A stretch of 63,483 nt of DNA, the filler included, from Folioceros fuciformis (lineage: Eukaryota): assembly GCA_049999805.1 (NCBI GenBank). It is 14 parts of 14 records of this genome, joined end to end, with 100 filler letters (N's around TTAATTAATTAA, not from the genome) between each part and the next. Parts side by side here need not be neighbours in the genome. Positions count along the whole stretch, not along the records: positions 16,770 to 27,438 come from JBNGIO010003622.1; 13 more parts are not named here. One strand, written 5' to 3'. The notes beneath the pieces were generated by a model. It saw only the letters and a program-made list of their open reading frames with translations. It did no database searches and had not been told where the DNA came from. Made by a program: the position numbers and the translations under genes. Below are positions 16,770 through 57,800 of the stretch, piece after piece. Each line of letters starts with the position of its first letter. Position 1 is the first letter of the stretch.

Positions 16770-17180
16770 CCCTCCCCCGAAGGACCTCTCGGGGCGGGGA
16801 TCGTCCCGATCCCTGCCGCCCCCACCACCCCGGTAGCCACCATAGTTGGAGAAGCCGCCGCCGAGGGAGCCAGGTTCCGGCTCCTCCCCCGTGCGGTCCC
16901 GGGGTCCCGTAGGAAACAAGCGCTGCTCCGTGGGCGTGAGGCCCCGGGAGTCCGAGATCTGTCGGTTCCTGCTACCATGTCCAACGTGAATCCCTTGCTG
17001 AAACTCACTGAAGGTCATGGGCTGGGGCTTCTTTTTCTTGCTCTTGGCCTGCGTGACAGCAGCGGACAGGTCCGGGAAGTCCGTGGTGCTGGCAACGGGA
17101 GCCCGAGCGCTCTCCCTCTCAGCATCTGCACGCTCTGCTTCGGCCGCCCAGGCGCCGGGCCCTGCCCATGGCTTTGCCAT
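16770..17180 (-). CDS. eIF4B: Plant-specific eukaryotic translation initiation factor 4B, N-terminal part (truncated by scaffold end)
   Basis: MAKPWAGPGAWAAEAERADAE...FPDL...KKKKPQPMTFSEF...GLTPTEQRLFPTGPRDR...LGGGFSNYGG matches the recalled plant eIF4B N-terminus. Confidence 0.85.
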
Positions 17181-19048
17181 GACCTTTAGCTGCTGGCTGC
17201 GCAGCACCGGCTCCCGCCGCTGCTGCTTCTGCTCCTCTGAATGCTCCTCTGCTGCGGCGCTCGCGCTAGCCCTCAAGTTACTGCTGTGTCGCCCACGTAC
17301 GAAAGACACAAGCTAACATACAGAGTCGCCCGCGAGGGCCCGGTCTCAGACAAAGGCAATCTTTCCATAACTTCGCACACATAAATACTAATGGCATTTT
17401 CCACTCATACACCTAACACAAGTATTTTCTGAGTAAATATTCATCAAGTAGCACACACACATATGCTATCCTCATTTTTACCTTCAAACCATCGAGAATA
17501 ATTTTCTCGCACATACATATATATGTGCATATATGTATATATCTTCATAAATAGATATACACTAAATAAATCAATAAATCATGTAACCCATTATGTATAA
17601 ATAACCTCTTCAACACAGCTATTTTGTAGTACCTTTTATGGCTTGCTCTAAGAAATATTCTTCATTTTTTTATAGATTTTTTGCACTTAATATTTCCTTT
17701 AAAGTGCTCTTTGTTCACTCACAAATAAATTATTTGTGTGTGATTGTTTGAATAAAGATCTCTTTTTTATTAGTTTTTTTTCTTATTTATACACAAATAA
17801 AACAAAAAAACCAGTAGACTTCATTAGAAGAAGAGAAGGTTTCAAATCCAANNNNNNNNNNNNNNNNNNNNNNNNNNNNNNNNNNNNNNNNNNNNNNNNN
17901 NNNNNNNNNNNNNNNNNNNNNNNNNNNNNNNNNNNNNNNNNNNNNNNNNNNGTCGTATGGAATGACCTTTGTGGTTCCTTTGTGAACAAATGGTTTTCCC
18001 ATCTCTTCATTAAGTAGATAAAGTTCCCATTCGACATTGATTTCCAAGTGGATTGCAATCACCATCTCACATTTGACGAACATGTATCTTGACATTTCAA
18101 AAGAAAAAACTAGACTATAGATATATAAAGTTAGAGACGTTGACATGAAAAGGCTGAGCAAGCTCACTTTACATCCCTATGTCATAAGTTGTCTAATCAC
18201 GAACCAAAGAACAACAATATCTGATTAAGAACATGATAATTCTCTCTAATATAGCTTCTTTCTAGCATGAGCATGTTGACTTACTGGCAAAACAATAGAT
18301 TGAGACGTCACTACTTAGACCTTGGCTTTATCTTTCTTTGCCCAAAACTCCTCCACAAGAGAGACAATCTTTTTAGGGCTCAAGCTCTAGGCTTAGTTGA
18401 AGCACTACCAATCTAGCAAAGGCAAGTACTTGTCTAACATTAATACTCTTTCATGGGGCTAAGAGCTCTAGCTCTAACTTTAGTTGCAGCACTAGCAGTA
18501 TAGCACCAGTAAGTGTTTAACATCAATAATCTTCCTAGGGCCCAAGCTCTTGCTCAACCCCAACATTAGTAAATCGCTTTGTAGTAATAGTGTAAAAATG
18601 AAGTAATATAACATACTTTTTTATTTATTGCTTAATAAAATAGGGATCAGGTTTACCACACTTGATAATGTAGTAACAAATTAGGATGCGGAGTTGTATG
18701 GCGTGGCTTGGTTGAAGCCCGTGGTATCCTTTCCCCTGCCCGGAAGTTTGTGTTTGTACAAGAGGCAGAAGTAGTCTATTATAGTCCACTGGCGAAGCTG
18801 GAAGAAGGATAATATCTACCGTACTCAACTTCGGCAAGTGCCTATGCTTCACGACGAGATCTTTTACTCTCTGAATTACGCTTCAAGTTGCAGTGTGTGG
18901 TCATCGGTCAGTTAACGTTCGTGCAGCCTCCGATTCCACTCGCTGCCTTCTAAAATGTTGTCCTACAAGACAGGGCGCCCAATGTTCTGTCCCTAGTCAA
19001 GTACAAAGTACCAAGAAACTTTGCAAAATTCAGCTCAGACGATGGTGG

Positions 19049-22000
19049 CTACTGCCGGTCTCCACATGAACAAAACCCATTAACAAATCTGTGAACACAA
19101 TGAGAGTCTCGAACTATGATCTCTCGGTTCTCGATCCTGGACATGATCTTCGTACTACTGTGACAATCACTGCACATTCGCAGGTTCTTTGTCACAAGGA
19201 GAGGCGTGCCAACTGAAGTGTGCAGGAGACCATATGCCAATGCTAGCTTTTCAGCATGCCCACACAAGGCATCCTCCTTCTCTCTGTCTGAGACACACTT
19301 CAGCACCACGTCTACATGAGGCGCATGGCCTCCTTCCTCTCTCAACTGTACATTTAAACTCTTCAGTTTATTGGTGATGTCATCTCTGTCTTCGCCGACG
19401 ACGAAGGTGTGTACGTTGCTGTTCACCTCAATCCATGCGCTTGCAGGCTTCTTGTGTGCACCGGCACACTTTCTCAAGCTTTCTATGCCGGCAGCATCCT
19501 GACCCATACCAGCCGTCGCATAAATGTTCGCCAACAGAATATACGCAGCTGCATCTTGAGGCTCCACTTGGACAATCTGGTCAAAGCATCGCCTTGCAAT
19601 TTCTACATTGCCGTGGATTTTGCAGGCACTAAGCAGAGATCTCCACCCCACAGTTCGATCCTGAGGAGGCAAACAAAGTAACATTCGTTCTGCTTCATTC
19701 AGATTGCCTGATCGCCCCAGGAGGTCAACCATGCTAGTCTGATGGTAGACATTCGGCACCAGGCCGAACTCTTCAACCATCATTGTGAAATACATTTCAC
19801 CCTCACATACCAGACCCTCATAACTGCATGCAACCAAGAGAATGAGGAAAGTAGTCTCGTTGGGATGAGGCCCGTCGTCCAGCATTTCCTGAAAGCACTG
19901 TAATGCCAGTCTACTCTTTCTATGTTGTGCGTACCCATTCAACAGAGCATTCCATGTCACCACATTTCTGAAGGGCAATCTGTCAAACACTTTCTGAGCA
20001 TCCTCCAAGCTTGCACATTTAGCATACATGTCCACAAGGCTGTTACCAATTACCACTTCAGCCTCTAGTCCCCTTCTCTGTATCTCCAGGTGAAGCTGCT
20101 TCCCTTGATGTAAAGCCCCAACACTGGCACATGCACTGATCAAGCATACAAATGTTGCCCTATCAGCTGGATTGATGTTCTCCCGCTGCATTGTTGCATA
20201 AAGAGCCAGGGCTTCTTGACAAAGACCATGCTGCACGTATCCTGCAATCATAGCATTCCATGTCCCTACATCCCGTGTCTGCAATCTGCTAAACAATTGG
20301 TAAGCATCCAGCAAGTCACCACACTTTGCATACATGTCCACCAGGCTGTTGCCAATATCCACATCATCCTCAAGTCCACTCGCTTGAATTTGACAATGAA
20401 GCTGCTTGCCCTCATTTAATGCTCTGAGTTCGGCACATGCTTTGAGGAGGCAAATATATGACACAGCATCAGCTACAGAGATCCCCTGCTGTTGCATACT
20501 TGCATATAGTGCCAGGGCTTCTCGACCAAACCCATGCTCAGCATATCCAGCAATCATGCAAGTCCATGTCACAGCCGATCTAGAGGTCAATTTATCAAAT
20601 GCTTTTCGAGCATTGTCCAAGCTTCCACATTTCACGTACATGTCCACGAGGCAGCTACCAACAACCATATCCGTGTCAAGTTCTCTGCCTTGGATTTGAG
20701 AGTGAAGATGCTTCCCCTCATTCAGAGCTCCAATATTTGCACACGCTTTCAAAAGGCACACAAACGTGACATGATTGGGTATTACAAGGCTCTCCTGCTC
20801 CATATTTGCGAACAGCTTCAGGGCCTCGTGGCCAAGCCCATGATCAGCGTATCCTGCTATCATGGCAGTCCAAGTCACAACATCTCGGGAGGTCATTCTG
20901 TCAAAGACGGTTCGGGCATCCTCCAAGCTGCCACACTTTGTGTACATGTCAATCAAGCTGCTACCAACAACCACATTAGCATCAAGTCCAAATTTCTGGA
21001 TTTGAGCATGCAAAACTTTCCCCTCATTCAAAGCTCTACAATTGGCACAAGCCTTCAGTAGGGCAACAAAAGTCACATAGTCAGCTGAAACCTTGTCCTT
21101 CTGCATGCTTGAAAAAAGACTGAGGGCTTCTTGGCACTGCCCATGCTCAGCATACCCAGCAATCATGGCATTCCATGTAATCACATCTTTTGCACACAAT
21201 CCATCAAAGACTCTTCGGGCGTCTACTAGGCTGCCACATTTGGCATACATGTCGACTAGGCTATTGCCAATTACCACATTTACGTTCAGGCCTCTCTCCT
21301 TAATTTTGGACTCAAGGTCCTGGCCCTCGGCTAAGGCTTCAATACTGGCACAGGCTTTCAGGACGCATACGAACGTTATAAGGGTTGGGTTGATGGCATT
21401 TTCCTCCATGCGTTTATACAGCGCTAATGCTTCTTGACCTAGCCCATGCTGAGCATATCCGGCAAGCATCGCATTCCAAGTTACCACATCCTTCGTAGGC
21501 ATTTTGTCGAAAACAAAGTGGGCATCCTCTAAGCTCCCACATTTTGCATACATGTCCACCAAGCAGTTTCCAACAAAGACGTTGGGCTCGACTGCACTCT
21601 TTGCGGCGTCGGCATGGACCTCCTTGCCAGACGCCAAATCCAGTGCCTTGGTACATGCCTTGAGGACTGCCACAAAAGTATGATCATTCGGTTGGACACC
21701 ACACTGGCGCATCTTACGATAGAGATCAATAGCCTGCTCAGGCTGCTTGTTCTCAGCATGTGCCAAAATAATAGAAGCCCACATAAAAGTGCTCGGTGCA
21801 GCCAGATTGCTGAAAACCTGCAGTGCTTCATGCAACCTGCCATGAAAAGCATACATGCGGAGAATATGGTTGGCCAGGAACACATTTGAGTCGAATCCAC
21901 TTTTGAGAGTGAGAGCATGAACACGCTTGCCCAAAGCAAGATCTCTATGGACCCTGCACACCTTGAGGGCATGATAAAATAGTCCTGCCGGAACATAAAA

Positions 22001-22656
22001 CCCTTGTCCAACCAGGAGATCCAGCAATTCAACCACCTCATTCAGCTGGCCCTCCTCACATGCTTTGCTCGAGATCCCAACATCTGGACTTCCTTCACGC
22101 CTTGACACCCTGCAACGTCGAGGGAGCTGTCAAAGACAAAGTTAATCGCAGAGCTACGATCACTTGATCTCTCAAACTAATGAAAGTTCACTTTCCCAAA
22201 ATTTCAGAGACAGTATGCACCTCTCATCGACCTCAAAATCAGTTCCGGAGTAGAATTCAGAATGGCCTGAGGCTACCCACGACCGTTGGGTGCGTGTCGG
22301 TAGCGAGTCACCCTCCAGGACCTCACTCAACGTCGTGCGCACGGCTTCGGTTTCGAGTTTGCTCTGCAAAATTGAAGAGAGCAAGTGACCGACGATGACT
22401 CCGTAATCGGCCATGAATGTTCAAATCTATCACACCGATTTACCTTGTACAACCTGCTGTCCCAATTGTACTGCAAGACATCACTTGTCCCAAATGACGG
22501 ATGCCAAGCAGACAGGCCGCTTGACCCTCCCTTTCGTGCAGCATCCTGCAACGATGACAGTCGTCTGCACCATTCCTTATAAGCGAGACACGCGGGTCTC
22601 CTCTGAATCCGGCTGGACAAAACCAGATTGCAACCCGCGCGACAACCTTTCTTCAT
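19049..22656 (-). CDS. PLS-class pentatricopeptide repeat protein with E1/E2 and a C-terminal DYW:KP deaminase-like domain, ~1138 aa; exons 22656-22444, 22363-22221, 22109-19049
   Basis: Seven tandem PLS units (VDMYAKCGSLEDA / VVTWNAMIAGYA / TFVCLLKACA), then P2-L2-S2-E1-E2. The terminal domain reads KPASAWIEV...CGHAEKLALAYGL...KNLRMCSDCH...CSCGDRQ. Two GT-AG introns (80 and 111 nt) join in phase to an ATG exon rich in R/S/L/A, resembling an organellar transit peptide. Confidence 0.95.
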
Positions 22657-23679
22657 TCCAGCTATCCACCAGCCTTGTTGTCGATGCTCACTATGAAACC
22701 CTAAGGCTCCATCAGCTTTTCACCACATCAACGTTGATCTGGACAGCGTGTAGTTCATCGCTGCACATAACCCCTTGCCAAGTCGGAACTGCTACTTCAA
22801 CAGCCCGGTGCAAGCCTCGATACGAGGACTTCCAGGCTGACCAAGCAGTGCACAGTCGGCTGCAGAGGACCTGGTATAGTCAATCAAGGAGACGAGCTGC
22901 ACAAGGTTAACGTACAAATTTGCACTGACTTGTTATTCTGAATGCTTCTTTTCTTGTGAGATCAAGGTGAACGGGCACATAACCACGTCCTGGGATGCCA
23001 AGCTCAGGTCTTGGATCCATTGTCCTCCACAATCCACTCGCTGTCTAAAACCCGAACAGCTCACCGTGGCATAATGAAGCTGATGCCTGCTTCAACGTCA
23101 GTTCTACAGACTTCTTCCAGAGGCTTCTGGAATGCGCCCAGTGAGCAAGGACAATGCCTTGGAGATGCTGCTCAGCCCAGTGAGCAAGGACAGTGTCTTG
23201 GGGTTGCTGCTCCGGATCACTTGTGTGGTCCAATTTACTGTTGGGTGTCGAGAGGTCGTTTGCCCATTACACCCAAGCCAACCCGTTTGCAAGTCCTTCC
23301 AATAGGTTATTTTCGGTAGCCAACTGCTCTGCCAACAACCAAAGTGGCTCTGCCAGCAACCAAAGTGGTTGCCATCCACAGCAGATGTTTGGCTATGACG
23401 ATGCTCCATCTACGCTGCCCATGCGCGGTTAAAGGATGCATTGCATGGATAGCTGCTCCCAATGTTTCTGGTTCCTTTGCAGTTGTGTAGACAGTGGAAA
23501 CGAGCGAGTGCGAGTATGGCCGGTAGGTGCAAGATAGCTCCCAAATGCACTGATTTCATATTCGTTCCTGATGAAAGTTCCTCACAAGGTTAACCAGATT
23601 TGGTGCTAATTCTTTGTAAGACCAACACGATCGGTTCCTCTGATTCGAGGACAGTGTGGCCGTGTTTCAAGGCATCCCT

Positions 23680-26600
23680 TCAATAAGTACCGGTGGAGCA
23701 TCCGTTCTGCCAGCCAGTACAAATGGAAGGAGGTTCACCAAATGCCAGGAGTCCGACCTTACATCCTTCAACTCGGGCTGAAGAAACTTAGTGGTCCATG
23801 AGACGATACCTGAGAGCAGTTCACAATCCCGAATTCTAAACCGTCCACAAGGGCTCGAAAGCTGGCCTCCACGATGGAAGAGTGCGCCCCGACCTGGAGA
23901 GGAATCGGACCTCAGAAGAGACGTAGCTAATGCAGATGTTTTGGGATGGCGGGAAGTCACATACCGTCGTCCACTTGCTACCATTGCCGTCGGTAAAGTC
24001 AATTGTGACTCTGGTTGTGGACATCGAGCCCTTTCTAGCTACCAAAGGCTCTAGCAGTCGGACTCGGTAGTCCGACAACTCTACTTGCTCAAGCTGTGGA
24101 TAATGCTCCTCCAGTGCCCGTCTGCTCTGATCAAGTTCCGTATTAACATGACACCATTGCGGGAGGTCGTGAGTTTTCCTCCTGGCTGAGAAGTTGGGTC
24201 AGGAGCGTACCTCAGTGCATGGCTGAGGGCGTCGACAGGTCCATTGCCTTCGGCGGCGCTCATCTGATAATCTCGCGGGTGAGAAAACTCAAGAAGTAAC
24301 CTCAAACGCAAATCACGTTTAACAAGAAGGAACAGGACCAACCTGGACTGAACTACCAACGAGTAACTTGACTAAAGCCTGGTTGACTTGTACTTCGTTC
24401 TCGATAGGGTTCACCCCGCTTTTGGAATCAGGCTTCATGTCAGCTTCGCTACCCTGTGACCCTCGATTGCTAGAGATCACGGAGAACTCCAACACACGAA
24501 AACTGAGATAACAGCACCTGTCAGCACATGTGACAAAGTACAGAAAAGTGGTGGAAGGCTGCGATTGTTTACAAAATGATTGGAAAGCACTTACGGTTGT
24601 ACATAGTCCTTGCCCTTCCGTACAATCAGCATGTCCACGGAAGCAGATGCATTCTCAAATGCACAACCCTTAGGATGCAATCGCAATACGCTTATCAGAG
24701 TAAGTACACTTGTAAGCAACGAGAAATATTTGCTAGTGGAACAAAAGCCAGAAACTTCACTGCTCAGACATTCGGTGTACCTCATTCTCCATCTGCTTGA
24801 TGCGAGCTAGAACGCTGCCAGCAACGTCTTTATCGAGCACCAAGCCTGCTTTCTCTGCCTAAATTCACATGACATGTTACACATCAATTCAGGGCAGGAG
24901 TAAGGAAGATTCAGGGGCATGTCCAGACATGATAGAGGCGCAGAACGTGCCTTGTCCAAGATGTTTCCTCGTCCGGAAAGCTCGCTCACAACAGTGCGCA
25001 TGGTATTGCCCACGAGTGTGGGATCCATATGATTGTAACTCTCAGGCATCTGCTAGCGAAATATGGGTGACGACAGATCTTTTTTGACATCAAATTGCAA
25101 CATCCCACTGCAAACGCTTAGATGGAAAATCATACCTTACGAAGTGCTGCAACGTGAATTCCTCCTTTGTGTGCAAAAGCACTCGATCCTACGTAAGGCT
25201 GTGAAGGTGACAGTTCCTGTGCGGCAACTTCAGCCACAGTGCCAGCTATCTCTGCTAGTCGTGGTAGAAAGGCAGGAGGTATGCAGAGATGACCAAGCTT
25301 GGCTTGCAAACCTCCAATGACACTCACCTTCGATGCAAGAGAAAGGACGACTGAGAACATATAGAGGAAGCTGACACTACTGCGAAGGGATCCCAGAAGA
25401 CAAAAGAGCATCGAAGAAGGAAGCCTTTGAAGTCATACCAAGTTTGCATTTCCAGTGCGCTCTCCATAGCCATTCATGCAGCCTTGCACAAGAGATGCAC
25501 CACCTCTCACAGCTGATAGACTATTAGCCACGGCCATATCCGTATCATTGTGAGTATGGATACCCACCCTGACTTTGGGCCAATCCTTAAGTGCTGCTTT
25601 CACCTCTCGAGTCCTTGCCTGCATTGCACAAAGTGCTATAATAGAATGCTCAAAACAGGGCAGGCACAAAAATAGGCTTATACCTCAATGTCCCAAGGCA
25701 TGGAGCCACCATTTGTGTCACATAGCACGACAACGTCAACTCCTGCTTTAGCTGCCGTTTGTAAGCAGTTCAGTGCATACTCCCTGAACAACACGTCAAG
25801 ATGAAATCACCTCAGTCTCTGGAGCCAGACTTGAACGACAGCTCCCTGTAAGTACACTTACTTGCCTGTTTGCAGTCATTCCGTCAAAGAAGTGTTCAGC
25901 ATCAAGCATCACCTCTCTCCCTCGGACCTGAATTGTGATACTTCACTTGAGACAAGGCTTCCGGGGAAGCCAACAGCTGCTGCTGAAGGGACTCACCGCT
26001 AACCTTGAAATAAGTGACAGTGTCGGCTATCATTCTCAAGTTCTCCTCGAGGGTTGTCTCTAGAACTCGGAACACTTGAGCATCCCAAGCCTATCACTTC
26101 CACAGGAAGTTTCAATCGTCTGGGATTCATGAAGGGCGCAGCGCTGTTAACACAAGACGAGCCCGGCATACCTTCGCTACCAAAGTAATAACCGAGGCTT
26201 CACACGAAAGTAAGGCTTGGACATTTGTATCCTGTGATGTGCACCTTCGGTTAATAAAAAATGCTTCAGCACATCAACCGTGAGAGTTCACAAGTAATTG
26301 ACAGCATAAAGACCAGACAGTACAGTCAGACCTCATCACATGAGGAATTTTTTCGACGAGTTGCTCCAAAAGCAGCCAGCTTCGTTCGACCTTGTGACTT
26401 CGAGACAACAGTTTCACAAAGGCTGAAAAAATCGGCATCTTTGGGATTTGAACCTGGCCATCCTCCCTCGATGTACTCAACACCTGCACAACAAGAACGG
26501 CACTCTTCTTCAGCAACAGTCCGACCCTGCATAAATTGGCAGAGACACCCGAGCCCAATGGGGCTTGCACTCCAACGTCCTGAAGGCAACATGAACCCAA

Positions 26601-27188
26601 AAAAAAAAAAAAGCTCCCAGTGACTGCTACAACCTCTGATCTTATAACGTCGAGATCCAAACGGAACCAGAGGATGAAACCGAGGCGTACCTAAATCAAC
26701 TAAAGCGCTGGCAATCTTCAGCTTATCGGCAAGGCTTAATGAGATTCCCACCATCTGCAAGCACACATGAACACTACAGGTGATCGCGCCGCTAACTCCA
26801 GGCAACATGAGAACATAAAAGGCGGCAGAAGGTCATCCACCTGAGCCCCATCTCGCAGCGTTGTATCATACATTGACACACGGGATCCTGTGGCAGCGCC
26901 GTCGGCAACCCGTGGCTCCACATCAATGAGTGCCTGAACATTGCAACATTACGAACATCCAACAGTCAGAATTTTCAGCGTTTCCTCATCCGCACGTGAT
27001 TCTCAGTACAGGCGCCGGCCCCGCCTTCCGGTCGACTCAGCAAGACTCCTGCACCCGATGGGACTGCAAGCAGGGGACATGATACATACCAGCTGCGACC
27101 TTGCCGAAATTGTCCTCAGTTGCGCCACTTCCGACAACGTTTTCGCATGGAGCTCACTAGAGAAACAAGGCAACATCTGAGCCTCCAT
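23680..27188 (-). CDS. cimA: Bacterial-type citramalate synthase (CimA; DRE-TIM/LeuA-related family), ~18 exons; start and last exon approximate
   Basis: Spliced translation: [210 protein letters not shown] and AFAHKGG distinguish CimA from plant IPMS, which has FAHESGIHQDG. Confidence 0.85.
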
Positions 27189-27538
27189 CGCGAGCAGCAC
27201 AAGCGGCGCAATGCTTCAAATTGACAATGCAGGTGCTTCCTGGAGCACAAGGCATGAGAGGAACAAGTGTAGGAGGGGTCATGATCCATTCTGAACCTGG
27301 ATCGCAGCGGAGGAATGAACAAGGAGCACCGTCGCAGCGGAGGAACAAGCGAGGAGGAGCGCAAGCTCCCCGCTACGCAGGGGCTACACGCAGACCTGTG
27401 TCGCCATGCATCACACGAAGGCGCTCGGCCAACAGAGGNNNNNNNNNNNNNNNNNNNNNNNNNNNNNNNNNNNNNNNNNNNNTTAATTAATTAANNNNNN
27501 NNNNNNNNNNNNNNNNNNNNNNNNNNNNNNNNNNNNNN

Positions 27539-36325: not shown

Positions 36326-39300
36326 CTACAGGCTGCCCACCTTCAACTTCTGCAACATTTCAAATGCTGCGGAATGCTCCGCCTTTTTCTTATCCGACAT
36401 TTCTGTCCCTATGCAAACGGTTGGCCCACAGCCAGGCACATCCACAGTGACGGAGCATTGGAATCTGCGAGTTAGTACAGAGACGTCAGGTTTCTTCAAG
36501 GCCATCAAGAGCAGACCGAGGCAGGCCCCCGTACCTTCTAAGGTGCGCAGGGCCTGCCTCCTGGAAGACCGCGAAGGACGGGTCCCGCCACTTCTTTTTG
36601 GCACATAGCTCATGGAGAGTAGACTTCGCCCGCCTCGAGTCCAAACTAGTTGTTAGAAGTATATCACCTGCAAACAATGCAAGCTATCAAAACCATGAAT
36701 AGCCCCGAAATTGTCAACTTCGTTCTTAACTCACTCGAAGATTATAGATCCACTGGGTCAGGCATCCAGACCTGCACTGGTCGTACTGACGTCAGCATGG
36801 GTCTGCACTGGCTGATAAACATCTGCGAACAGCGTCATCCTCTTCTTGGCCATACCGCAAGCAGAACCTGTACCGTCTCCAAAATCAAGTTTCCTCTTCA
36901 TAATAGGTGCATGATTTCCATCTAATTGAAGGTCCTTGTCAATGGACACCCATTCATCAACATTCGTGTCCCCCTCCTCACAACGTATCTCAACTGGGAT
37001 CATAGTTTCGTCTGAAGTCAAAAGCTCTTGATTCAGAGATACTAGCAATTCTGTGAGCCTATGAGATGAACCGGAATCAGCTGGAGGGCATCGCTCTCCT
37101 GCACTCTCTTCTGACAATGAATCTGAAGGGAACGGGAAGTCCTCCGGATTGGAAACCTTTTCTGTTCGATGCCTATATTTCTGCTTTAAGCAAACAATAT
37201 TGTTAAAGATCCGTACATCTCGCGACTGAAAACAAGAAACGAGGAGGAATGCGAAACATCCCACCTGCAACTTTCGCAGAAGTTTCTGTGAGACATCCTT
37301 GCGAGCAGCCTTTCTACTCGTAGTCGTGGATGAAGCTGTGAGTGACCTTTCGCCATCAGAAATTTTCACTGACGCGGTGAACATGTCCTCATGGCCACCT
37401 ACTTCTGTGTGCACGGAGAATCCTTGGGTCTGACACAGCTGTAGTAACTCCCTAACAGGATGAACAGTGAGAGTTGCTGGTGTTACAAGCGGACAGAGCA
37501 ACTTTTCCATCACATCCCATGTTCTGTCCAGATCAAATCCAGTGTCGAGAGCTATTGCCCCAGCTATACTTTCCACCATGTCTCCAAGGACCTACCATGA
37601 ACAAGAGATCAGTATGTCGACATTAAAAGTACTGCTTCAAGACTTAGCAGCTAGGGGAAGGATACCTTAGGTCCACTCTCCTTTTCCCATCCACATACAC
37701 GCTCTTTAGTATGAGAACCTTCTTGATCTACACTCCATACAAATTGCCCTATCTGGCTTAAAAGTGCTCTTGACGAATGCCGAAGGTGATGCTGCAGGTT
37801 ATGTTTGACAGCAACTCGAGCGAAACAGCCATTGTTCACAGCAGCTGCTCGAAGGTCTGTCAGCTGCCCGGGAGCCAGATCCGGGTAAGATGTGAAAAGC
37901 TGCTTTGTTATCACAAAATCTAGTACTGCATCTCCTAGGAACTCCAGCCGCTTCAGATTGTCCAAAAAGCCACCACAACCCCAGATCAGTGCAACCCAAG
38001 ATCAGTCAGACCAGAAGTTGCAGCACAAAGTGATTACAGTCATCAATCCACTCCACGTTGGTTGCTGACCTGATAGCAGCGGCTGTTCACTCCATCTTGC
38101 TGTGATGCATGAGTTATGGCCTCCACCAGGAGTGCTTTGTTGTTGAAAGTGTACCCGAGGCGAGCCTCCAAAGGACCTAAGTCAGCACTTTCAAGCACTT
38201 CTGGTGTCACTGATGCTTGCTTCTGCAGCCGACCTACTAGGCAGTTCTCGTATTCGACTTCAATTCCAACCCACCTCATGAAACGCAATGCAGCAGTTTC
38301 ACCACCGTACAAATAATATGCCCCAATCAACGACTCCACAACATCTGCCATGGTCTTGAGACACAGCCACCGATGACCATCAACACAGCTTTTACCAACT
38401 TTCCTAAACGATTTCAGGCCACCACGCTGGGAAGCACAACAAGAGTCAGCCGAAGACTTCACTCCAGTCTCAGGGACGTGAAGCTCCGCAAGGTCACAAT
38501 AGCAGACCTCCTCCAATTTTCTTCTCATGCCAGGAGCGAGCCATCGCTTTGGGTCAAAAACCTCATCCCGGATATAAGCCTGCAAAATGATATCCTCGTA
38601 TGATTGATATGAAAAGATGGGTGTCCAAAACCATTTGGACAGCAGGAGTTTGCAATAAAGTCTTACAGGTAATTGACGTGCGATAGCAAGCTTATACAAG
38701 TTGTTGTTGGAAATGGCTCGACTTCGTCTGGCTGAAAGCTGCCCTTCGTGCTTACTTTGAAATACCAAGAACAAATATCGGCTGACGGCATACTTCAGAT
38801 AAGAATCACCCAACAGCTCCAACCTTTCAAGCGATGAGTCTTCAAGACACCTGGAGGTTGTAAGAGCCTCCACAATCTGCAGAGGCACAGGAACTTACGT
38901 CAGGCAATATTGCACTTAATCTACCTGCTCATCTTTTGGTTAGTACATTCACGCACCCGTGCTAGTGGAATGCCCGGGCAATCCGAGATGGCTGAAGAAA
39001 TGGTCCTTCTCAAGTGGCTAGCCTTCAAGAGTGCCTCAAGATAATGCATTACTGAGGGGATTAAGTATGATGTATGGAAAATTGAGAGTGGCAGCCCTGT
39101 AGATATGCACAGCTCAGGAGCGATATTTGCAAATCTACGCTCCTTCTTCCCCACCTTCCTCACGTCAACTGCCCACAACATGCAGGTGTTTGTAACAATC
39201 AGCTTGATAACATATAACAGCAGAATCCTTTGCATGAATAGACAGCCCTCAGCACAGACCTAGTTGCTCTGAACGTGTGAGCAGATTTCGTACGCGGTGC

Positions 39301-42300
39301 GAATGCTTTGTTTGCAAGAATGCCTGATGGACATGTATCAGCGTCTCACCATACCTGACACAGTGACAACCTTCAGTATTGCCAACAGTCACAAAAGTAT
39401 TGAGAATATGCACATGCCAGTTCTCATATGAAGGCAGGAATGCAAAGACATACTTATCCTTGAAGTAATCTCCGTAAGTTTTTTGCGGCACCGGTCCAGA
39501 GGTTTCTGCCACATGCTCCTGCCCTTTGTTCGTAGGAAATGCAGTGATAGCATTAGTTCCCTCTAGGAGTTTGGTCACAAAGTAAAACCGACCGGTGTGA
39601 CGAGTGACTACAGCAGTATCCAGAATTCGCTCAAGGCTAACCACACCATCAGCAAGCTGCACAGGGACATTGGAACTTGCTTTCATTGGTTCCGGTTGCC
39701 CCTTTTCATCATTCAGGCTTCTGATGTCACCTAAAGAGAAGCCATCGACTTCATTCTCATGAGCAAGAAACTTTGCCACATGAGCTCCTTTTCGAACATA
39801 CTCCCAATTGATTTGTGCTTGTAAAGCGTGTGTCACACCTGATCCAGTTTGCTTGGGAAATCTTGCCAACGGTAGCAGCAAGTACATCCGTGACTGTTCC
39901 CACAGCTTGTCCAGCCTTTCTCTGGACAAACAAAGGTAATCAACCTTCCAAGATGTAAATCCAGCCTGTTTTGGTGAACGAGTCACTAGTCTGGAAAACA
40001 TGCCATTGAAGAATACCTCCTGAAACTTCTTGGCATCTTCGAGCTGTCAGGGTATACGATTTGGAAACCAGTCATTCCAGGCCTCTCCACAATACTGATG
40101 AAAGGAAAAAAGAAAACAGTGATGAACTCACCTCATTTACATTGAGTTCTACTTTTGAAGCAGGAATCAAGGCGGCATTCACCGCCTGGCCCACTTTTAA
40201 GTTCAGCTTCACCACTAGTTCAGCTGCATCATTTTCCAGCTCAGACTCCAACAGAAGGACGAAATCAACGAACTCCTTTCCCTCACAGGAAGTTGGTGTG
40301 AATGTCATAATATAAGCATACAATGAAGCTCCATGCTTACTGTTGCCCCAACAACCTTCCAAGCCTTTGGTTGAAATTGTTGCATGGAGCTCTTTCTGCT
40401 TCATGTTCCCTTCAACACGATAAGCATTGTCAGCGAAACATGAGTCATCAAAGAATTGGATCACACAACATTGAGTTCCGAAGTACCTCTCCCCACTGCT
40501 ATATTGCCCACATTGTCCACAATGCTGCTATCTGGCCCTGCATCTGTGACTGGTCGCAAGTGGTCATTTAAGCCTCCCAACTTGTGCAGCTTTTCACAGG
40601 CCCTCAGACAAACCACCTGCTTTGCCAAAGCGGCATTCTTCCTCGGGGGGCCCACTTCCTCATGGATCAATGCATTTGCAGGTAGCTTTAGAGTACAGAT
40701 GTGTTCTTTGTCTTCATTCGTAGAAAAGCAGAAGTCTGGCCTTGGAATGTAAAATCTGAACAGAACCAACAGATGGACGTTGCAATGAGGAGGTAAAACG
40801 TAGGTACATTTATCTGGTTTAGAAATTTGCTGCAGTACTGATGAACAAGAGCTCTGCTTCATGTTGCGCTGACTACAGCCCGGTGGCCAAACATAGGACC
40901 ATCAGTTGGAATGTGCAGTCATCCACATACCGATCTTTTGGTAGCTTGGAGCAGTACTGATAAACAACTGCTATGCTGGAGCTAGTAGTGACAACAGCCC
41001 CAGTGTTTTCCACCTTGTAAAACTCTGGAAGTACAGCATCTGAAGGGCATGGAGTTGGGTCGGGAGCCCGACCTTCACGGTCAAGGGACAGTGCCTTCAT
41101 ATTTCGCTCCTTCGCTTTCATTTTGATGAGTTCTCCCAGATGTCGTGCCCTCCTGTCAAACCAGAAGGGCAAACAAAGATCACGCGCAATTCTGGAATTG
41201 TGCAGTGTCCTTGATTAGATACATGCCTCCCAATTACCTATCCAGAAGGACTACGTAATCAGATCCAGGCCGACGAGCACGTCCACGAGACTGAATGTAG
41301 CTGATTGGCGACTTTGGCAGGTCGAACCTTATTACTATATTGCAGCTTTGAACGTCAAGGCCTTCCTCTGCAACATCGGTAGCAATCAAAATATTTACCT
41401 GCTCCAAAGAGAGCAAAAACTCAGAAATGGGCCAGAAGACTAGAGGACGACGCCTTAGAATTTTCTGAGATTACTCATTAAGGGCAAACATAGATAACAA
41501 CCTTGCCCAGCCGAAAGGCTGCTATAACAGACTGTTGCTTGCTGGTGCTCGTATCCACATGTGAACCGCTATTACCAGTCAGAAATTCACACCGAAGGAA
41601 AGAGAGGGAACCCAGTCTACTCAGTGCATTGACTAATTCGCACAATCCAATGGTGTCAATAACCCTATCAACGAACACAATGCACCGAAGATCTGCTGTA
41701 TCTCTGCAACATAAGAGGAAGATGCAGAGATATGAGAAGGTTGTTCAGGGATGCCATCATGTCTCACACAGAAATGTATCCCCAAATATAAATTTGGACG
41801 AGTTACCGACCTGTAGCCCTTCAGAACCTTAACAAGCAGCTTCACCTTTGGGGTCAAAAGATTATTGACCAGTTCCTGTCCAGGTTCACCTGAAGGAGTT
41901 TGAATCGGGGTGCTTGAGACAAAGCTTCACAAGTAAGGCCTCCAAAAAGAGCTGGCAAACCAACACAGCCTTTCACCTGGGAGAACAAGAGATTGGAGAA
42001 GCTTGAGGGCCTCTGAAAGGAACCCCTTTTGTTGTCTGATGACGCAGTTTGCGAGTTCGCAATCCAAACACTCAAATGTTGTAGGAGCTGCATTGTCTTT
42101 CAACAATTTCACCACCACCTAAAGAACATCAAGCTAATATCAGAGAAGTTCCAGGGTGAGTTGCATTTGCTGAAGCACACAGACATACCTCCATGGCACA
42201 CCAGTATCCCAAGTCCGTAACACAATGCAGAATAGATCGACAGAGCCTGGAGATGTGGCTCTTGAGCCTTTTTGAAGCTATCTTCTGGTCTTCATATTCT

Positions 42301-45438: not shown

Positions 45439-45538
45439 NNNNNNNNNNNNNNNNNNNNNNNNNNNNNNNNNNNNNNNNNNNNTTAATTAATTAANNNNNN
45501 NNNNNNNNNNNNNNNNNNNNNNNNNNNNNNNNNNNNNN

Positions 45539-48072
45539 GAGGACGGAGCTGGTGGCTTGCAGCCGGCGTCGATCCGGACAGGCGCGGAGGGGCATTCGGG
45601 CTTGGCGGAGAAGGTGTCGCAGCTGGAGCGGGCTGCTGGGGACTTGGAGGACGCGGTGGCTGCAATCAACTCCTCTGCCTGGACGTACAAGAATCGGAAA
45701 GTGCTGACGGTTTCGGGCATGGAGGTGGGTGAGTGGTGTGTAGAAGTAGTAGTAGTTGTAGTAGTAGTAGTAGGAGGAGGAGTTATCATGTGGTGCATAG
45801 CATTATCTGCATTTGTGTGTGTGATGGCGACTGACTGTGAGATGCTGGTTTGGGATGAACAGGTTACTGGAGGGTTTCGGCACAAGTTGGCAGCAGCTGT
45901 GAATTTCCTGCAGGCGACGGAAAGAGTGATTGAAGATGTTGTGAGTGGCAACTTCGAGTGCGAGGATGTGGTGTCGAAGGTGGATATTAGGGTGGATCGT
46001 GCAGTTGCAGCTCTGAAGCCGGCAGCAGTTGCTGACTACCGATCTGTTTTGGCTAGCATTGGGTGGCCACCGCCTCTGTCGTCCGCTGGGAACAGTGAGG
46101 GTGGCCCAGGTGACAAGGGGGGCAACAACAATCCTTTGCTGGACATGGAACCGGAGGCGAGCAGCAAGTTTGAGAAGAGCTTCTTGGTGCTTGCAGGTCT
46201 GCAAGCGGTACAGATGAGACGGAAGGCACGGCAGCTCAGTCAAACTCCGGCTGCTTTCCAGCCGAGTCGGCAACAGAAGAAAAGACCGTCTGAACCCATT
46301 TGGGCTATCGACGAGCTTGTAGGGCCTGTAGAGTCTAGAGTGGAGTATCATTTCGTGAAATGGGTGAAGAGGCCGGAGCTGGTGTTTTCTCTTATCCATC
46401 GCCTGACAAAGCAGTACGTGGACGTTGTCGAGGAAATATTGCAGCCGCTGCTTGTCAGGGCCAAACTTACCGGTTGCAGAGCTAGGGAGGAATGGATCGC
46501 TGCCATGGTGAAGGTTGGTGGGAACCATCTTCGGACGCATGCTCTGCCTGATATTTTGGCTGATCTGCAGTATGAAATAGGGCTTACGGCTGCCCTCTGG
46601 CTGCATACGGTGGATGAGACTATTGCATTCGACGCAAAAATGCAGAGTCTGGCTGCGAGGTCGATTGGGTTGTTCCCTCTCCAAGGCAAGGAGCTGACAG
46701 GGGTCCAAGAAAGGGCTCTGGGGCTTGAGGTTGCCTGTATCTCGGTGTTTGCCGAGCGATCCGAGTGGCTGGCGATATGGGCTCGCCTTGAGTTTGGGGA
46801 TGCCCTGCAGAAGCTGAGATATGTTCTTGACAGGGAGGAGGCATGGGAAGTCAGATCGAGGCCGCATTTATCTTCGTTTCTCGAAGGAGCTGGCTACGAA
46901 AGCATTTCTGTGTCTCCCTTAGAGGAATTCGGGGCTCCCTCCGGAGCAGAGGCAATGACGACGAACATGGCCACTGTGATGGATCGGTGTCGAACACTTT
47001 TGGAAGCGGACCAACGCTTTACGTTTGTCAGGCTGGCGGCAGCTCCGCTGTCACATGAGTATCTCGACTACCTTCAAAGACGATGCAGAGAGGCAGAAGG
47101 TTTGACTTCTCTGGCCGATGAGGATTCAATGGTGAAGGTGGCTATCTGCACAAATGCAGCTCGATATTGTCATAGTGCCGTGCAAGATTGGGGGGAGGAT
47201 ATCTTCTTTCTGGAACTCAGAATGGCGGAGTTGAATCAAAGCGGTGATATCCCCAGCAGCACTAGCTTGGCAGATGTGGAGGGCAGCGTGTTTGACNNNN
47301 NNNNNNNNNNNNNNNNNNNNNNNNNNNNNNNNNNNNNNNNNNNNNNNNNNNNNNNNNNNNNNNNNNNNNNNNNNNNNNNNNNNNNNNNNNNNNNNNGCTG
47401 GAGGGCTTCACGAAATTCCAACACGACTGGATCAACAAACTGGTGATGGTGACCACCGGTGGTTTCGAAAGTACTTGCTGGGAATACATCCGGAACAGAA
47501 AGAGATGGCAGGACGAGGCCGAGGCTTCCTTGGATGGAACAGGTGGATCTCGCGAAGACCCCGTGGGTGGTTTGCAGGGTATACAGATTGACGACGCGAC
47601 TCTGTGCCCCTCCCCGAGCCTTGTGGATGCATTGGCAGAGTTGCAAAGTCGGCTGAGGGCGTTGCAACACGCCTTCTGCCAGACGAATTTTCTCGAGTAC
47701 TGGCGTGCACTTGCAACGTCCTTGGACCAGTCCTTCTTCTTCAGTGTCATCGCCGGGTCGAAGTTCTCAGAACAAGGTGGGCTGCAGCTAGCTGCGGACG
47801 TTCAGGCCCTGTTCAAGATATTCAAGGCGTTTTGTGCCCGCCCCGGAAGCTATTTCAAAAATCTGAGCGATGCATCCAAGCTGCTCACACTAGCTGAGGG
47901 GGAAGCCGCAGCACTGCTCCAGACTATGCAGGCTTCTGCGTGGGAAATGGAGGACGAGGCAGAATCGGAGGTTAAGGACGCAGTACAGGCTGTTTTGAGA
48001 AAGCATGGCGTGAAGAGACTGTCGTGTTCGGTGGCTATCAAGCTTTTGAACAACCGTGTGTATTCGAGGTGA
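45539..48072 (+). CDS. MAG2: RINT1/TIP20 family tethering factor (MAG2/MAG2-like); 5' partial, intron 45725-45862, apparent frame change only at the N gap
   Basis: ADYRSVLASIGWPPPL, EPIWAIDELVGP..EYHFVKWVKRPELVF, LQPLLVRAKLTGCRAREEWIAAMV, WLHTVDETIAFD, NAARYC..DWGEDIFFLEL, FSEQGGLQLAADVQALFKIFKAFCARP. Confidence 0.85.
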
Positions 48073-52822: not shown

Positions 52823-54871
52823 TACTCTCTAGATAAGCTTACTTTATAAGCTAATCTATTATAGAGCTATATTTTTAGTAGTATTTTAATTAATTTATTA
52901 TTATTTAACTTATTTAAGTTAAGTTAGTAGTACTTAGAGTACTTTACTTAGAGTACTCTAACTTAAATTAAAATAAGCTCTATAGATTTTACTTCTTTTA
53001 TAATATAATACTATACTAATTCTTATATATATTACTAGTAGCTAATTAGCTATACTCTATACTTCTTCTACTTACTCTTTATAAGCTCTAACTAATAATA
53101 ATTTATAGATAAAAGCTTAAAAATCTACTTATATTTACTATACTACTACTACTACTACTACTTCTACTACCTCTACTACTATATCTATATCTATACCTAC
53201 TATTACTATAACTACTATATACTATACTACTACTACTACTAAAGCTTTAGCTTCTTCTAGAAAATTTATATACTCTTTAGTATATATAGTATATTAACCT
53301 TAGGTAAGTAAAAAACTTCTATTAATAGAGAGTACCTTTATAAAGCTATTAGTTATTTTTACTAATAAGTCTTATATATCTCTATTAGAGAGGCTTAAGC
53401 TCTTTACTATACTTTTTAGTAAGTATAGCTTAGAACTCTTACTTCTAGAGCTTTACTTATCTAAAACTATAACTTTTTCTTACTAGAGTTAACTAGAAGC
53501 TCTTTATACTAAGCTCTACTTAAGCTATATAAATAGTATATTCTTAGAGTACTCTTTTAGAGAGTACTATAATTCTAGTACTAGAGAAGTATAGTATTAG
53601 TACTACTCTTCTAAGTACTCTTATATAAGAGTATAAGTAGCTTATTAATTATTATTTTCTATATTATTACTAATTATATATTAGACCTAGAATTACTTAT
53701 AAGTTAGTATAGAAGCTTATTAAGCTTCTATATAATAAGAAGAAATTTCTATTATATATAAAGATTACTAAAATCTATAGAGAGCTTTATATACTTCTTA
53801 TAGAAGAGTAGTATAAGAAGAAGAAGAAGAAGAAGAAGAAGAGAAAGAAAAAAGAGAAAAAAAAGAGTAAGAAAAGCTCTTATACTACTTCTTCTACTAC
53901 TTTCTCTACTATTACTTCTACTCTTAGCTACTACTACTACTACTACTATACTCTCTTTCTAGTAAAGCTCTTTATAAAGATTCTTATTTAGTACTAGTAA
54001 GCCTAAAAGTTCTTTAAAAAGCTTCTAGAGGTTTTTATAGTATAGAGGCCTAGTATCTAGTACTTTAGTACCTTAATAATACTCTATTCTATTCTATAGT
54101 TATTCTCTAATCTATTATAGTTATAGTTTAATCTAGGTATATATATTCTATAGATTAAGTTAATTCTTAAAGTACTTAAACTATAAGTTAGATAGGTTTT
54201 TAGTAAGCTTATTAGTAGATATCTTACTTATTAGTAAGTACTATACTTTAAATAATTCTTTAGTATANNNNNNNNNNNNNNNNNNNNNNNNNNNNNNNNN
54301 NNNNNNNNNNNNNNNNNNNNNNNNNNNNNNNNNNNNNNNNNNNNNNNNNNNNNNNNNNNNNNNNNNNGCTATATATTCTATATATCTATATAGTATAGTT
54401 TTATAGTAATTCTCTTATTTTCTTCTACTACTAGGCGAATTATTTACTAATTATTATAGAAGATCCTCTAGGTTATATCTAGATCTAGTATAATCTTATT
54501 AAAAAAATACTTTATAGCTATTACTTTTTTACTTATATATTATAATACGAGTAGTTCTACTTCTATTATTAAAGTTATTACTATTAATTAATAAGCTACT
54601 TTTTATAAGATTACTCTTCTAAAAAGCTATATAATATATCTATAGAATAATCTTCTAGTTTTCTAATTATTAGTAAATAAAGTATCTTTATATATAAAAA
54701 GCTTAGTTTCTTAGTAGTTACTATATTAAATTATAAGATACTAAGTTCTATAGAAGTAGATAATTACTCTATAAATAGTATTAAAGTACTTCTTACTTAA
54801 ATTTATAAAGAACTATAAGAGCTTTAAAGCTATATATACTATATTAGATTAAATTATTATTACTATATAAA
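52823..54871. other. Extremely AT-rich scaffold with a repeat-induced point mutation (RIP) dinucleotide signature; probably an ascomycete repeat
   Basis: By eye, essentially no CpA or TpG dinucleotides and very few CpG over ~1.9 kb, with a large excess of TpA (tag/cta/tat/taa). No ORFs. Confidence 0.85.
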
Positions 54872-57800
54872 NNNNNNNNNNNNNNNNNNNNNNNNNNNNN
54901 NNNNNNNNNNNNNNNTTAATTAATTAANNNNNNNNNNNNNNNNNNNNNNNNNNNNNNNNNNNNNNNNNNNNTGGCTCTTGGTGATGCAACATCCAATATT
55001 TGTAGGCCATTAAGTACTTGTGGTGCCTGGGCCCATGCTTGTTGTATAGATGTTATGAAAACTAGGAAGTGAATAAGATGTTGACAAATTAAGATTATAT
55101 CCATCGTAGATATCATTGTTAGATCATTTAGGGTTTAGGGTTTAAATATCATTGAACAAATCAAATATCATATAGGGTTTAGATATCATTGAACAAATCG
55201 TTTGTGGAGAACAACTTTATAGGAGGGACGTAGATGCCCGATTTAGCATTTATATTCTGAATATAGCATATGGAATAGTCATATTAATAATGATCATAAT
55301 TTAAATATTATTATTTGGATCTAATAAATATGTGTATATTAATGTAAACCAAGAAAAACAATCATGCCAATATGTACGGTAAAAACAAACATGCAAATAC
55401 AAACAAGTAATGTACATATATCATGAGAGAAAATTAACATAAACTTCATGGGGCTTATTTAGACATGAAGTATTTTACATAGAGAAGGACCATGACCACT
55501 CTTCTCATCTTGTATTGAATTAATGAGCAAAAAATCATGAAGAACTTACAATTACTTGTAACAACTTGCGCAATGTATTCTTGTCCATTTTTCTATTCTA
55601 GAAATTATTGCTTGAATCAAGAACTCTTTAAACGTGAGTTGCTAACTTGCTTGATACTCAACAAAGAGTAGTTTCCCCTGAGGCTTAACATAGTGTTGAG
55701 AAGAAGGATGTGTGCTTGTAAAGAAAATGATACGTAATAGAAGGCTTCATTGAGTAAACTTTAGATCTCACCATTACTTATTGTTCAACAATTATGGAGT
55801 GTTCCTTGATGCATGTCCTTGTTGCAACTGTCGTCTGTGCTTTATTATCACCTCCCAAATAGGACCCATCTCTAGTACTCTTTGTCCCAACATAGGGTCG
55901 ACATTGTTAGTAGCCTTCTAAATTGTTCTGTTGTGCTACACAAGATCTTGCCTTTCAACATCTGAATCTTTTCACCGTAAGACTGTTTAATCCTATTATA
56001 CTTTATATATATATACTTAGCATGGATTCATGAATATATGGGGGTGGCCAGCTGTCCTGCCCCCAGACACGGGGCCTATGACAGCTATCAAAGTGGACGA
56101 GGGGGTAAGCTGGCCGGAGTAGGGGGCTCGGCTTTGCTGGAGCGACAGGCAGACCAACAAAACTATCTGGATAGCTCCCTAAGTCAGCAAACGTATCACA
56201 CCAGCAAGCGTCCCCGTCGAAGTGAATGGGTGAGAGGGGGATGAGGGGTTGAAGATGGAGTGGAGGGGATGAAGCGAAGTAGGCACAAGAGCACGGGCCA
56301 GCGGAGTTACAGAAGAACACTTGGGGCCGGGAGCTTACCTTGGGGATCCGCTCTCAACTAGTCGTCGTAGCAAGGCTTACCGGGTTCAACCCTCGAACAT
56401 CGTGGTCATTCTACAGCTCCTGCAAATGGCCTACAACCTTTGTCAATTGGAGGGAGATCACCTAGTCTTCCATCACAGGGTTGCTCTTACTGTCCAGAAG
56501 AGGAAGAACCCCTCAATGTGGCGAAGGCTCGGTCGAGGTCACGACCAAGAGTGAGGAGTTGGTTGGAGACGGGGGAAAAGCGAAGATGGCTGCGAATATG
56601 GAAAGATCTGAGGCGCCTGCTGTGTTAGCAGGTCTAGTTTTTATAATAGAAATGGGGCCGCAACCCGAAGGACAACCATAAACGCAAAAGCTATTCTAAG
56701 ACTTGGGCAGGCTAATCCTGCCAGATGTCAGCTGGTTAATTATCACCTAAACTTTAATGAGCCGATGGTGGGTAGGTGCAGTGAAAGCATAGGCACAGGA
56801 GGAACTACACCGGGCTCAGGAAGAAGTGTAGGAGATGAAGGATCAGCGGGGACTGCTCCTGACTCAAGTTAAGGAAGTACACGAGGTGAATCAAGAAATG
56901 CAACAAGAACTGCTAAGGGCGCAAGAGCAGGAAATAGCTGCAGTGGAGAAGGTCCAAAAGCTCGCGGACCGTTACAAATGAGAATGCGATGAGGCTCGGA
57001 GCCAAGTCAAGAGGAAAGGGAAGGTCAAACGGAGCAGCAGGTCCACGACTGAGGTAGTGGAAGCTGCTACCGGTCAGAGAGAAACCGCACCAGTAGAGGA
57101 AAGCCCGTGGCCGGGGAAGCAGCAACAATCGTGGAACCCACAACTGGGGTGGTTGGAATAACCACCCGCACTAGGAGGACCAGACTGGAGACAACGGGAG
57201 CTAGAGGGACAAAGGGCTCCCTAGCACCCTTAGAAAGCAGAAGACAAACAGTAAGGGGTAGCCCACGGGAGGAGGGGGTAAGCACCTCATTTGCAGTAGG
57301 AGGCCAAATTGTATTACAGCACATAGATGAGGAGTCTTATATTCCTGGCCTCTATGTGAATGGGGACCATGTACTTAACCTTACTGTCCATGTGCATGTG
57401 GAAATAGGAGGGACCAAAGCCGACTGTCTGCAACTGAGGACTCGCAGGGGGTGCTTCTCCCATTGCTTTCGGATATGGGGGTTGACTCCCTGTTACTCAG
57501 AGACGATATTGAAAGAGCTCACCGAAGAGGAAGCACAGGCCTAGGTGGAGCAAGAACCAGTGCTAGTCCCCAGCAACAGACGGCCAGTAGAGGAGGAGAG
57601 GATCCCAAGGCGGGCCCCACCCTTGCCTATCTAGGATAAGTTAGCCAGCAGCGAGAGTGAGGTGGAAATTTTATGGGAGGATTTGCTTGATCAGCAGCGT
57701 GGAAGGAGAGCCAGGGGATTTGGTGGGAGAGGAAGGAGGGCCAGAAGAACGGATAGGAGGAGGGTGCGGTGCTAAGGTAAGCCAGGAGTTATTGCATCTT

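Follow-up and report, generated by a model that had tools for sequence, protein, structure and literature searches.

A DRH-like DYW:KP pentatricopeptide repeat gene of Folioceros fuciformis and its putative role in organelle U-to-C editing

Introduction

Pentatricopeptide repeat (PPR) proteins in the DYW:KP class that belong to the hornwort DRH subgroup were reportedly described by Gerke et al. 2020 and Gutmann et al. 2020. The gene presented here lies on the minus strand of a 63,483-nucleotide stretch of DNA from Folioceros fuciformis (assembly GCA_049999805.1; referred to below as the window), in which 14 parts from 14 records are joined end to end with filler letters; positions 16,770-27,438, which include the gene, come from JBNGIO010003622.1. 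It is probably a nuclear gene encoding a full-length PLS-class PPR protein with a DRH-like DYW:KP domain, a putative organelle U-to-C editor.

The published marks of the class are a KP pair instead of PG, Ala or Cys rather than Ser after the zinc-binding His, a conserved Lys88, a variable end other than DYW, loss of the xHP element (which gives 133 rather than 136 residues) and Met92 in place of Val95 (PMC11845758, PMC9478123). The C-terminal triplet is itself reported to vary among KP proteins (PMC11845758). According to PMC9478123, DRH and GRP are two subgroups of hornwort KP proteins, while tracheophyte KP proteins cluster apart, and GRP proteins are described there as being without the Asp at position -3 and without its partner Lys. 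Counts of DYW:KP genes are available for 22 hornwort, 6 lycophyte and 5 fern genomes (PMC13386178). In Anthoceros agrestis, full-length KP proteins are reported to track U-to-C sites in number (PMC12548569).

Activity has been described for synthetic members of the class. The designs KP2, KP3 and KP6 are reported to carry out U-to-C editing in E. coli and in human cells, and the HAA and AxxA mutations abolish it (PMC9478123). Lys88 is reported to be essential for U-to-C editing by synthetic KP proteins, and its mutation abolishes activity (PMC11845758). The chemistry that has been proposed is a Schiff base between Lys88 and C4 of the uridine. Among canonical DYW:PG editors, H892 of OTP86 is given as a zinc ligand and E894 as the catalytic glutamate, and roles are likewise assigned to C920, C923 and K915 (PMC7611903). 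The KP editors described in a December 2025 review are synthetic only.

Architecture of the predicted protein

An open reading frame (ORF) of 1019 codons, counted from a GTG, occupies 19049-22108 on the minus strand, and measures 1026 codons from stop to stop. Its product (P0001) is laid out as follows.

19049-22108, minus strand: PLS-class PPR protein with a DYW:KP domain; 1019 codons plus stop; begins with GTG, with no in-frame ATG until codon 85
19655-22093, minus strand: PPR array, residues 6-818; seven P1-L1-S1 triplets plus P2 (35 aa), L2 (36 aa) and S2 (32 aa), 24 motifs in all
19451-19654, minus strand: E1 (residues 819-852) and E2 (residues 853-886), from the segmentation and the Pfam E_motif match
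19052-19450, minus strand: DYW:KP domain of 133 residues (887-1019), ending DRQ; the TAG stop is at 19049-19051

The PPR segmentation was made by hand on the recurring MY and TW anchors, and not with PPRfinder. Motif lengths are 35/36, 35 and 31 residues in each of the seven triplets, then 35, 36 and 32, with 34 each for E1 and E2, all of them canonical. The order of elements is that of the PLS class, in which P-L-S triplets are followed by P2-L2-S2-E1-E2 upstream of the catalytic domain. Pfam matches agree with this layout: PPR, PPR_1, PPR_2 and PPR_3 are all found in the protein, together with E_motif at residues 832-894 (E=7.7e-14) and DYW_deaminase at residues 927-1017 (E=1.3e-32). The initial annotation of this DNA had placed the DYW domain at 19049-19450, which is exact if the stop codon is counted with the domain, and had proposed more than 20 PLS motifs, in keeping with the 24 counted here. 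No N runs occur inside 19049-22763, a tblastn search with the protein found no second PPR gene in the window outside 19000-22200, and no genomic poly(A) tract, which would mark a retrocopy, was seen past the 3' end.

DYW:KP marks in the C-terminal domain

The final 133 residues start with KPASAWIEV, carry HAE at 951-953 and CSDCH at 979-983, and end with CSCGDRQ; each of these motifs had been pointed out in the initial annotation. The sites that define the class are the following.

19445-19450, minus strand: K887-P888 pair, replacing the PG of the PG box, from alignment to PG-type sequences
19250-19258, minus strand: H951-A952-E953, zinc ligand and catalytic glutamate with Ala for the PG-type Ser, from the shared HxE motif in the alignment
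19187-19189, minus strand: K974, equivalent to Lys88 in DYW:KP numbering, with Q1019 counted as position 133
19160-19177, minus strand: M978 (Met92 in KP numbering), then C979-S-D-C982-H983 with the CxxCH zinc ligands, from the sequence rows

When the domain is aligned to the synthetic PG-type protein 9kfx, these motifs stand opposite EPGCSWIEV, HSE, CGDCH and GDYW, with K887-P888-A889 opposite P-G, and a four-residue gap falls where 9kfx has SHPQ. The H-P-Q of that gap is present in 100%, 98% and 81%, respectively, of the canonical rows in our alignment. Counting Q1019 as position 133 puts K974 on 88 and M978 on 92, and the domain therefore has the KP length. The Met92 column holds Met in all 30 rows of the KP clade (100%) and Val in 90% of the 63 canonical rows. 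The columns of H951, E953, C979 and C982 are invariant in a 45-row alignment (A1), as is that of K974, and these five residues (H951, E953, C979, C982, K974) are equated, by their shared motifs, with H892, E894, C920, C923 and K915 of OTP86. The domain matches OTP86 (7o4e, E=2.1e-27) and DYW1 (7w86, E=5e-29), with the ligand positions aligned. Three PDB sequences match it at E<=1e-5, all of the HSE/DYW type, and no KP-type solved structure is among them.

The C-terminal CxC is kept, and the triplet that follows is DRQ, not DYW. The last codon is CAG, which lies within a 1101-letter contig from run X2 and a 1673-letter contig from run X1, both contigs showing 0 other letters; the two runs come from two samples. 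(Contigs from four runs were compared with the window; X1 and X3 are DNA runs, and X2 and X4 are RNA runs only by guess.) All of the sequence marks listed for the class are thus found in the domain: KP, HAE, HxE(x)nCxxC, Lys88, 133 residues without xHP, Met92 and an end other than DYW.

Placement among DYW:KP proteins

A quick maximum-likelihood tree was built from 121 rows (111 distinct) and 137 columns, with support given by the Shimodaira-Hasegawa-like approximate likelihood ratio test (SH-aLRT). The window protein falls in a 19-row clade (SH-aLRT 95) within a 38-row clade (SH-aLRT 93), and the canonical PG/HSE/DYW rows form a separate clade of 63 rows (SH-aLRT 99). A grouping with the PG enzymes, which the initial annotation had named as the outcome that would contradict its class assignment, is therefore not what the tree recovers. 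The 18 clade-mates of the window protein end in DRH (nine), GRP (four) or another triplet (five: DSP, VDH, DRY, DRP and DAH); 17 of them carry HAE and one HVE, and Met92 is present in 18/18. Diagnostic columns, defined as at least 80% conserved in each of two groups and differing between them, were taken from 30 rows of the clade that holds the window protein and from the 63 canonical rows. The protein is in the KP state at 11/11 of them, a result that measures consistency rather than independent support, as the KP rows were drawn from its own clade; the columns picked are the published ones. Motifs, columns and tree together uphold the assignment to DYW:KP.

A search of 1.84 billion representatives with the domain returned 2466 relatives at E<=1e-3 and 28 at E<=1e-30. 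Among the best 150 of the 2466, 15 carry HAE, and of these, Met92 is found in 14/15 and a D-Y/F-W end in 0/15. Since HAE, Met92 and ends other than DYW occur together among the relatives, the KP characters cannot be put down to chance. Over the last 240 residues, identity to the best database relatives is only 55-62%, and one 194-aa fragment is 71% identical over the domain.

Within the class, the protein is not a strict DRH member, as it ends in D-R-Q. It nevertheless keeps both of the residues that separate DRH from GRP, namely D1017 at position -3 and the Lys of 'STK', and for this reason it is, on sequence, DRH-like with a His-to-Gln change. The DRH-like variant end proposed earlier holds to that extent, but DRQ is no more than a one-residue variant of a triplet already described as variable.

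Transcript structure and the 5' end

One contig of run X2 (record 13, 838 letters) matches 21752-22126 and 22444-22763, with 143 letters between the two pieces, while DNA contigs of X1 and X3 (2462 letters) continue unbroken through 21755-24216. The gene structure upstream of the ORF can be read from it.

22127-22220, minus strand: intron 2 as in the spliced contig, 94 nucleotides (nt), GT..AG
22221-22363, minus strand: exon 2, 143 nt, the sole placement with GT..AG at both introns
22364-22443, minus strand: intron 1, 80 nt, GT..AG
22444-22763, minus strand: exon 1 as far as the contig reaches, holding ATG 22656-22654 and a 12-codon upstream ORF (uORF)

One alternative placement of exon 2 leaves its length unchanged but needs a GC donor. 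The gene is transcribed and spliced, and both 5' introns are real: record 13 joins across the two of them, and contigs from the DNA runs read straight through. Gaps in the X2 cover (none at 18300-18747, little at 22780-23003 and none at 23228-23451, with cover from the DNA runs in each) were not used as evidence.

The sole spliced contig uses an intron-2 acceptor at 22127|22126, 17 nt upstream of another at 22110|22109. Use of the latter would give an intron of 111 nt (22110-22220), an exon 3 that starts at 22109 and a frame of 1138 aa. The two candidate 3' splice sites (22110-22127, minus strand) differ in their effect, in that the upstream one breaks the frame and the downstream one restores it. 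The initial annotation had proposed an intact protein of about 1138 aa with a spliced N-terminus; its two introns are borne out, but its frame needs the acceptor at 22110|22109, whereas the contig uses 22127|22126. Because contigs keep one path and drop rarer variants, there may be a productive minor isoform that uses the downstream acceptor, and the choice between these acceptors, 17 nt apart, may act as a switch that decides whether the mRNA is coding or non-coding. A contig of run X4 (record 29) has a match that ends at 22108, followed by 146 unmatched letters; this could reflect use of the downstream acceptor in a relative or plain divergence.

The 40 residues that follow ATG 22656, which is in frame only with the unseen acceptor, include 9 Arg/Lys and 2 Asp/Glu and are weakly presequence-like. 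The uORF (22720-22758, minus strand; ATG at 22758-22756, stop TGA) lies in the 5' leader before this ATG. The peptide of exons 1 and 2 has no relative among 284 fetched proteins by BLAST (best E=1.9), residues 1-110 match nothing at E<=1e-3 among 44 candidates when compared with shorter proteins, and a search of metagenome contigs with residues 1-141 gave 95 pattern matches, of which 0 were confirmed.

Proposed function and alternatives

If the protein acts as its domains suggest, it would first be imported into the plastid or the mitochondrion, where the PPR array would contact one RNA over about 24 nt, each motif taking a single nucleotide. The uridine 4 nt 3' of the base that S2 aligns with would then be the substrate of the KP domain. 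On the model of the synthetic KP proteins, Lys974 (Lys88) would attack C4 of this uridine, beside the zinc bound by H951, C979 and C982 and beside E953, and convert U to C. With the published PPR code and register (PMC12733224), applied to the fifth and the last position of each P and S motif and with L motifs entered as n, the predicted target is 5'-nnCnnUYnUUnGAnRGnUUnYYnR-nnn-U-3'. Counted back from the putative edited U, the bases read are -25 C, -22 U, -21 Y, -19 U, -18 U, -16 G, -15 A, -13 R, -12 G, -10 U, -9 U, -7 Y, -6 Y and, tentatively, -4 R. The further proposal, that a native DRH-like KP protein is a site-specific editor with complete U-to-C turnover at one organelle site that can be read from its 24-motif array, is a tentative one, to which we give slightly less than even chances.

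Several observations count against a functional U-to-C editor. On the side of the gene, use of the acceptor seen in the contig closes the PPR frame with a TGA two codons before the exon 2/3 junction, leaves ATG 22656 out of frame, where it opens only 146 aa, and makes codon 85, within motif S1-1, the first AUG in the PPR frame. In a comparison with a relative from organism B, 11/20 changed codons are nonsynonymous in a partial list of differences. In S2 the code residues are T/R, a combination that the cited code does not include. On the side of the class, the U-to-C signal obtained in bacteria may stop at a crosslink, and KP1, a consensus mainly of DRH proteins and the closest designed counterpart of the protein, is not among the three active designs of seven reported in PMC9478123. 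A paper of February 2025 calls the activity of natural KP proteins unknown (PMC11845758). In agreement with that paper, and with the earlier statement that few or no native U-to-C pairs have been validated, no validated native U-to-C factor was found in the literature searched, a coverage that leaves out subscription journals. The gene can accordingly stand as the candidate that the initial annotation had seen in it, but 'strong' was too generous a word, given that many such genes exist and that the DRH-based design is not among the active three of seven.

The 5' end bears on the possibility that this is a non-productive or decaying paralogue, transcribed into an mRNA that yields no full-length protein through a frame shift or the 17-nt acceptor choice. 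The single spliced contig, with its 146-aa ORF from ATG 22656 and no PPR-frame AUG before codon 85, would be expected of such a gene, and the uORF ahead of that ATG and the failure of the exon 1+2 peptide to match any of the 284 fetched proteins (best E=1.9) point the same way. However, 1019 codons remain open with the catalytic and motif-length features all intact, the frame is restored exactly by another AG 17 nt downstream, and contigs drop rarer variants, so that the one transcript seen need not be the only one. The differences from the organism-B relative are mostly conservative and spare the catalytic residues, again on a partial list. We regard a decaying paralogue as unlikely.

Other alternatives accept the protein and concern its chemistry. 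It could edit C to U, or work in both directions, and only happen to have a KP-type domain: its deaminase ligands do not differ from those of the PG type, synthetic KP6 was active in human cells in the C-to-U as well as the U-to-C direction (PMC9478123), replacement of Lys88 is reported to make KP proteins efficient C-to-U editors, and the three-residue variants KP6u and KP6c shift the direction, which shows that few residues decide it (both PMC11845758). The residues concerned are nevertheless all in the KP state here (Lys88, Ala66 and Met92), and the working hornwort-type designs KP2 and KP3 gave U-to-C in bacteria with no C-to-U detected, as reported in PMC9478123; this alternative appears improbable. 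Still further from the evidence, and very improbable, is a factor that binds RNA but catalyses nothing itself, serving in stabilisation or in site recognition for another deaminase. Many PLS proteins do rely on a DYW domain provided in trans, an arrangement proposed for ferns (PMC12548569), but the domain of the window protein is itself complete (H, E, CxxC, Lys88 and the C-terminal CxC are all present), and the match between numbers of full-length KP proteins and of U-to-C sites in A. agrestis (PMC12548569) also speaks against this alternative. A putative U-to-C editor of organelle RNA thus remains the probable identity of the protein.

Genomic context and other features of the window

Upstream of the PPR gene, exons at 24081-25684 (minus strand) carry an HMGL-like match (E=2.1e-18) and a weak LeuA_dimer match, and the gene looks like an isopropylmalate synthase. 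X2 and X4 contigs skip 79 nt there (24263 to 24343), with CT..AC on the plus strand and hence GT..AG on the minus strand. ORF pieces at 36758-40046 (minus strand) with dsrm, Ribonuclease_3 (E=1.4e-17) and weak PAZ matches suggest a Dicer-like gene. At 45491-48072 (plus strand) lies a gene of the RINT1/TIP1 family (MAG2-like), whose best named relatives in lycophytes, a liverwort and a fern are only 40-44% identical (Diphasiastrum 44%, Selaginella 43%, Marchantia 42%, Adiantum 40%), with one further protein at 61%. Identities of this kind fit a deep-branching land-plant lineage whose named proteins are absent from the collection searched, and a hornwort is the likely source, the DRH and GRP ends of the closest relatives of the PPR protein being reported for hornwort subgroups.

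The window contains 40 N runs, among them runs of 100 N (e.g. 17852-17951) and paired runs of 44 N that are 12 bases apart (e.g. 27439-27482 and 27495-27538). They recur regularly over its full length and are either masked stretches or gaps of the scaffold. GC content falls to 0.247 at 54001-56000, against 0.35-0.52 across the rest of the window. Within the PPR array, summed contig depth reaches thousands in all four runs at 20316-20539 and 21436-21659, compared with about 10-60 nearby. Hundreds of paralogous PPR contigs stack on the conserved S-P motif junctions in these two intervals, and this pile-up indicates a very large PPR family in the sampled organisms.

Significance

Alone among the pyrimidine transitions, U-to-C editing has no natural enzyme that is proven, and consensus-designed KP domains alone have been shown to act. 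A complete, expressed native KP gene is usable material for an experiment that pairs a native factor with its native target, and the gene described here qualifies. It brings a clean read-out of a 24-motif code, and its coding 5' end needs to be settled before cloning. DYW:KP genes are numerous and have already been counted across hornwort genomes, so that this one, though a good example, is an ordinary representative of a large family that has been catalogued before. It may have an entry in published gene tables, such as Table S3 of PMC13386178. If the protein is indeed a native U-to-C editor, it would provide the first validated native U-to-C factor/target pair, and would reveal what natural domains have beyond the inactive DRH consensus KP1 and the synthetic editors that stall at a crosslink.

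Comparison with known systems

The canonical DYW:PG editors (OTP86, 7o4e; DYW1, 7w86; 9kfx) share with the window protein the deaminase fold, as judged by sequence, along with aligned H/E/CxxC ligands, the equivalent of Lys915, the gating-domain region and the C-terminal CxC. They differ in that their PG, SHP, HSE, Val95 and DYW are all replaced in the window protein.

Fern and lycophyte KP proteins, and the synthetic KP6, have the KP start, an end other than DYW and the catalytic signature in common with it. The named Adiantum, Ceratopteris and Diphasiastrum rows, however, fall outside a 31-row clade that holds the window protein, and most of them keep xHP or xHS, many with HCE or HSE.

GRP-subgroup KP proteins are closer, as they occur within the same 19-row clade and have the same HAE, Met92 and Lys88. 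They have Gly in place of the Asp at -3 and have lost the 'STK' Lys (Q, T, E and E in the four GRP rows P0010, P0011, P0024 and P0033), whereas the window protein keeps both. The synthetic designs KP2 and KP3, for which U-to-C activity is reported, are likewise of the hornwort type (PMC9478123).

With the hornwort DRH-subgroup proteins, the window protein shares a 133-aa domain without xHP, the KPA start, CGHAEKLAL, TKNLRMC, the Asp at -3, the 'STK' Lys and a full P2-L2-S2-E1-E2 upstream of the domain. The difference is the last residue, which is His in those proteins and Gln in the window protein.

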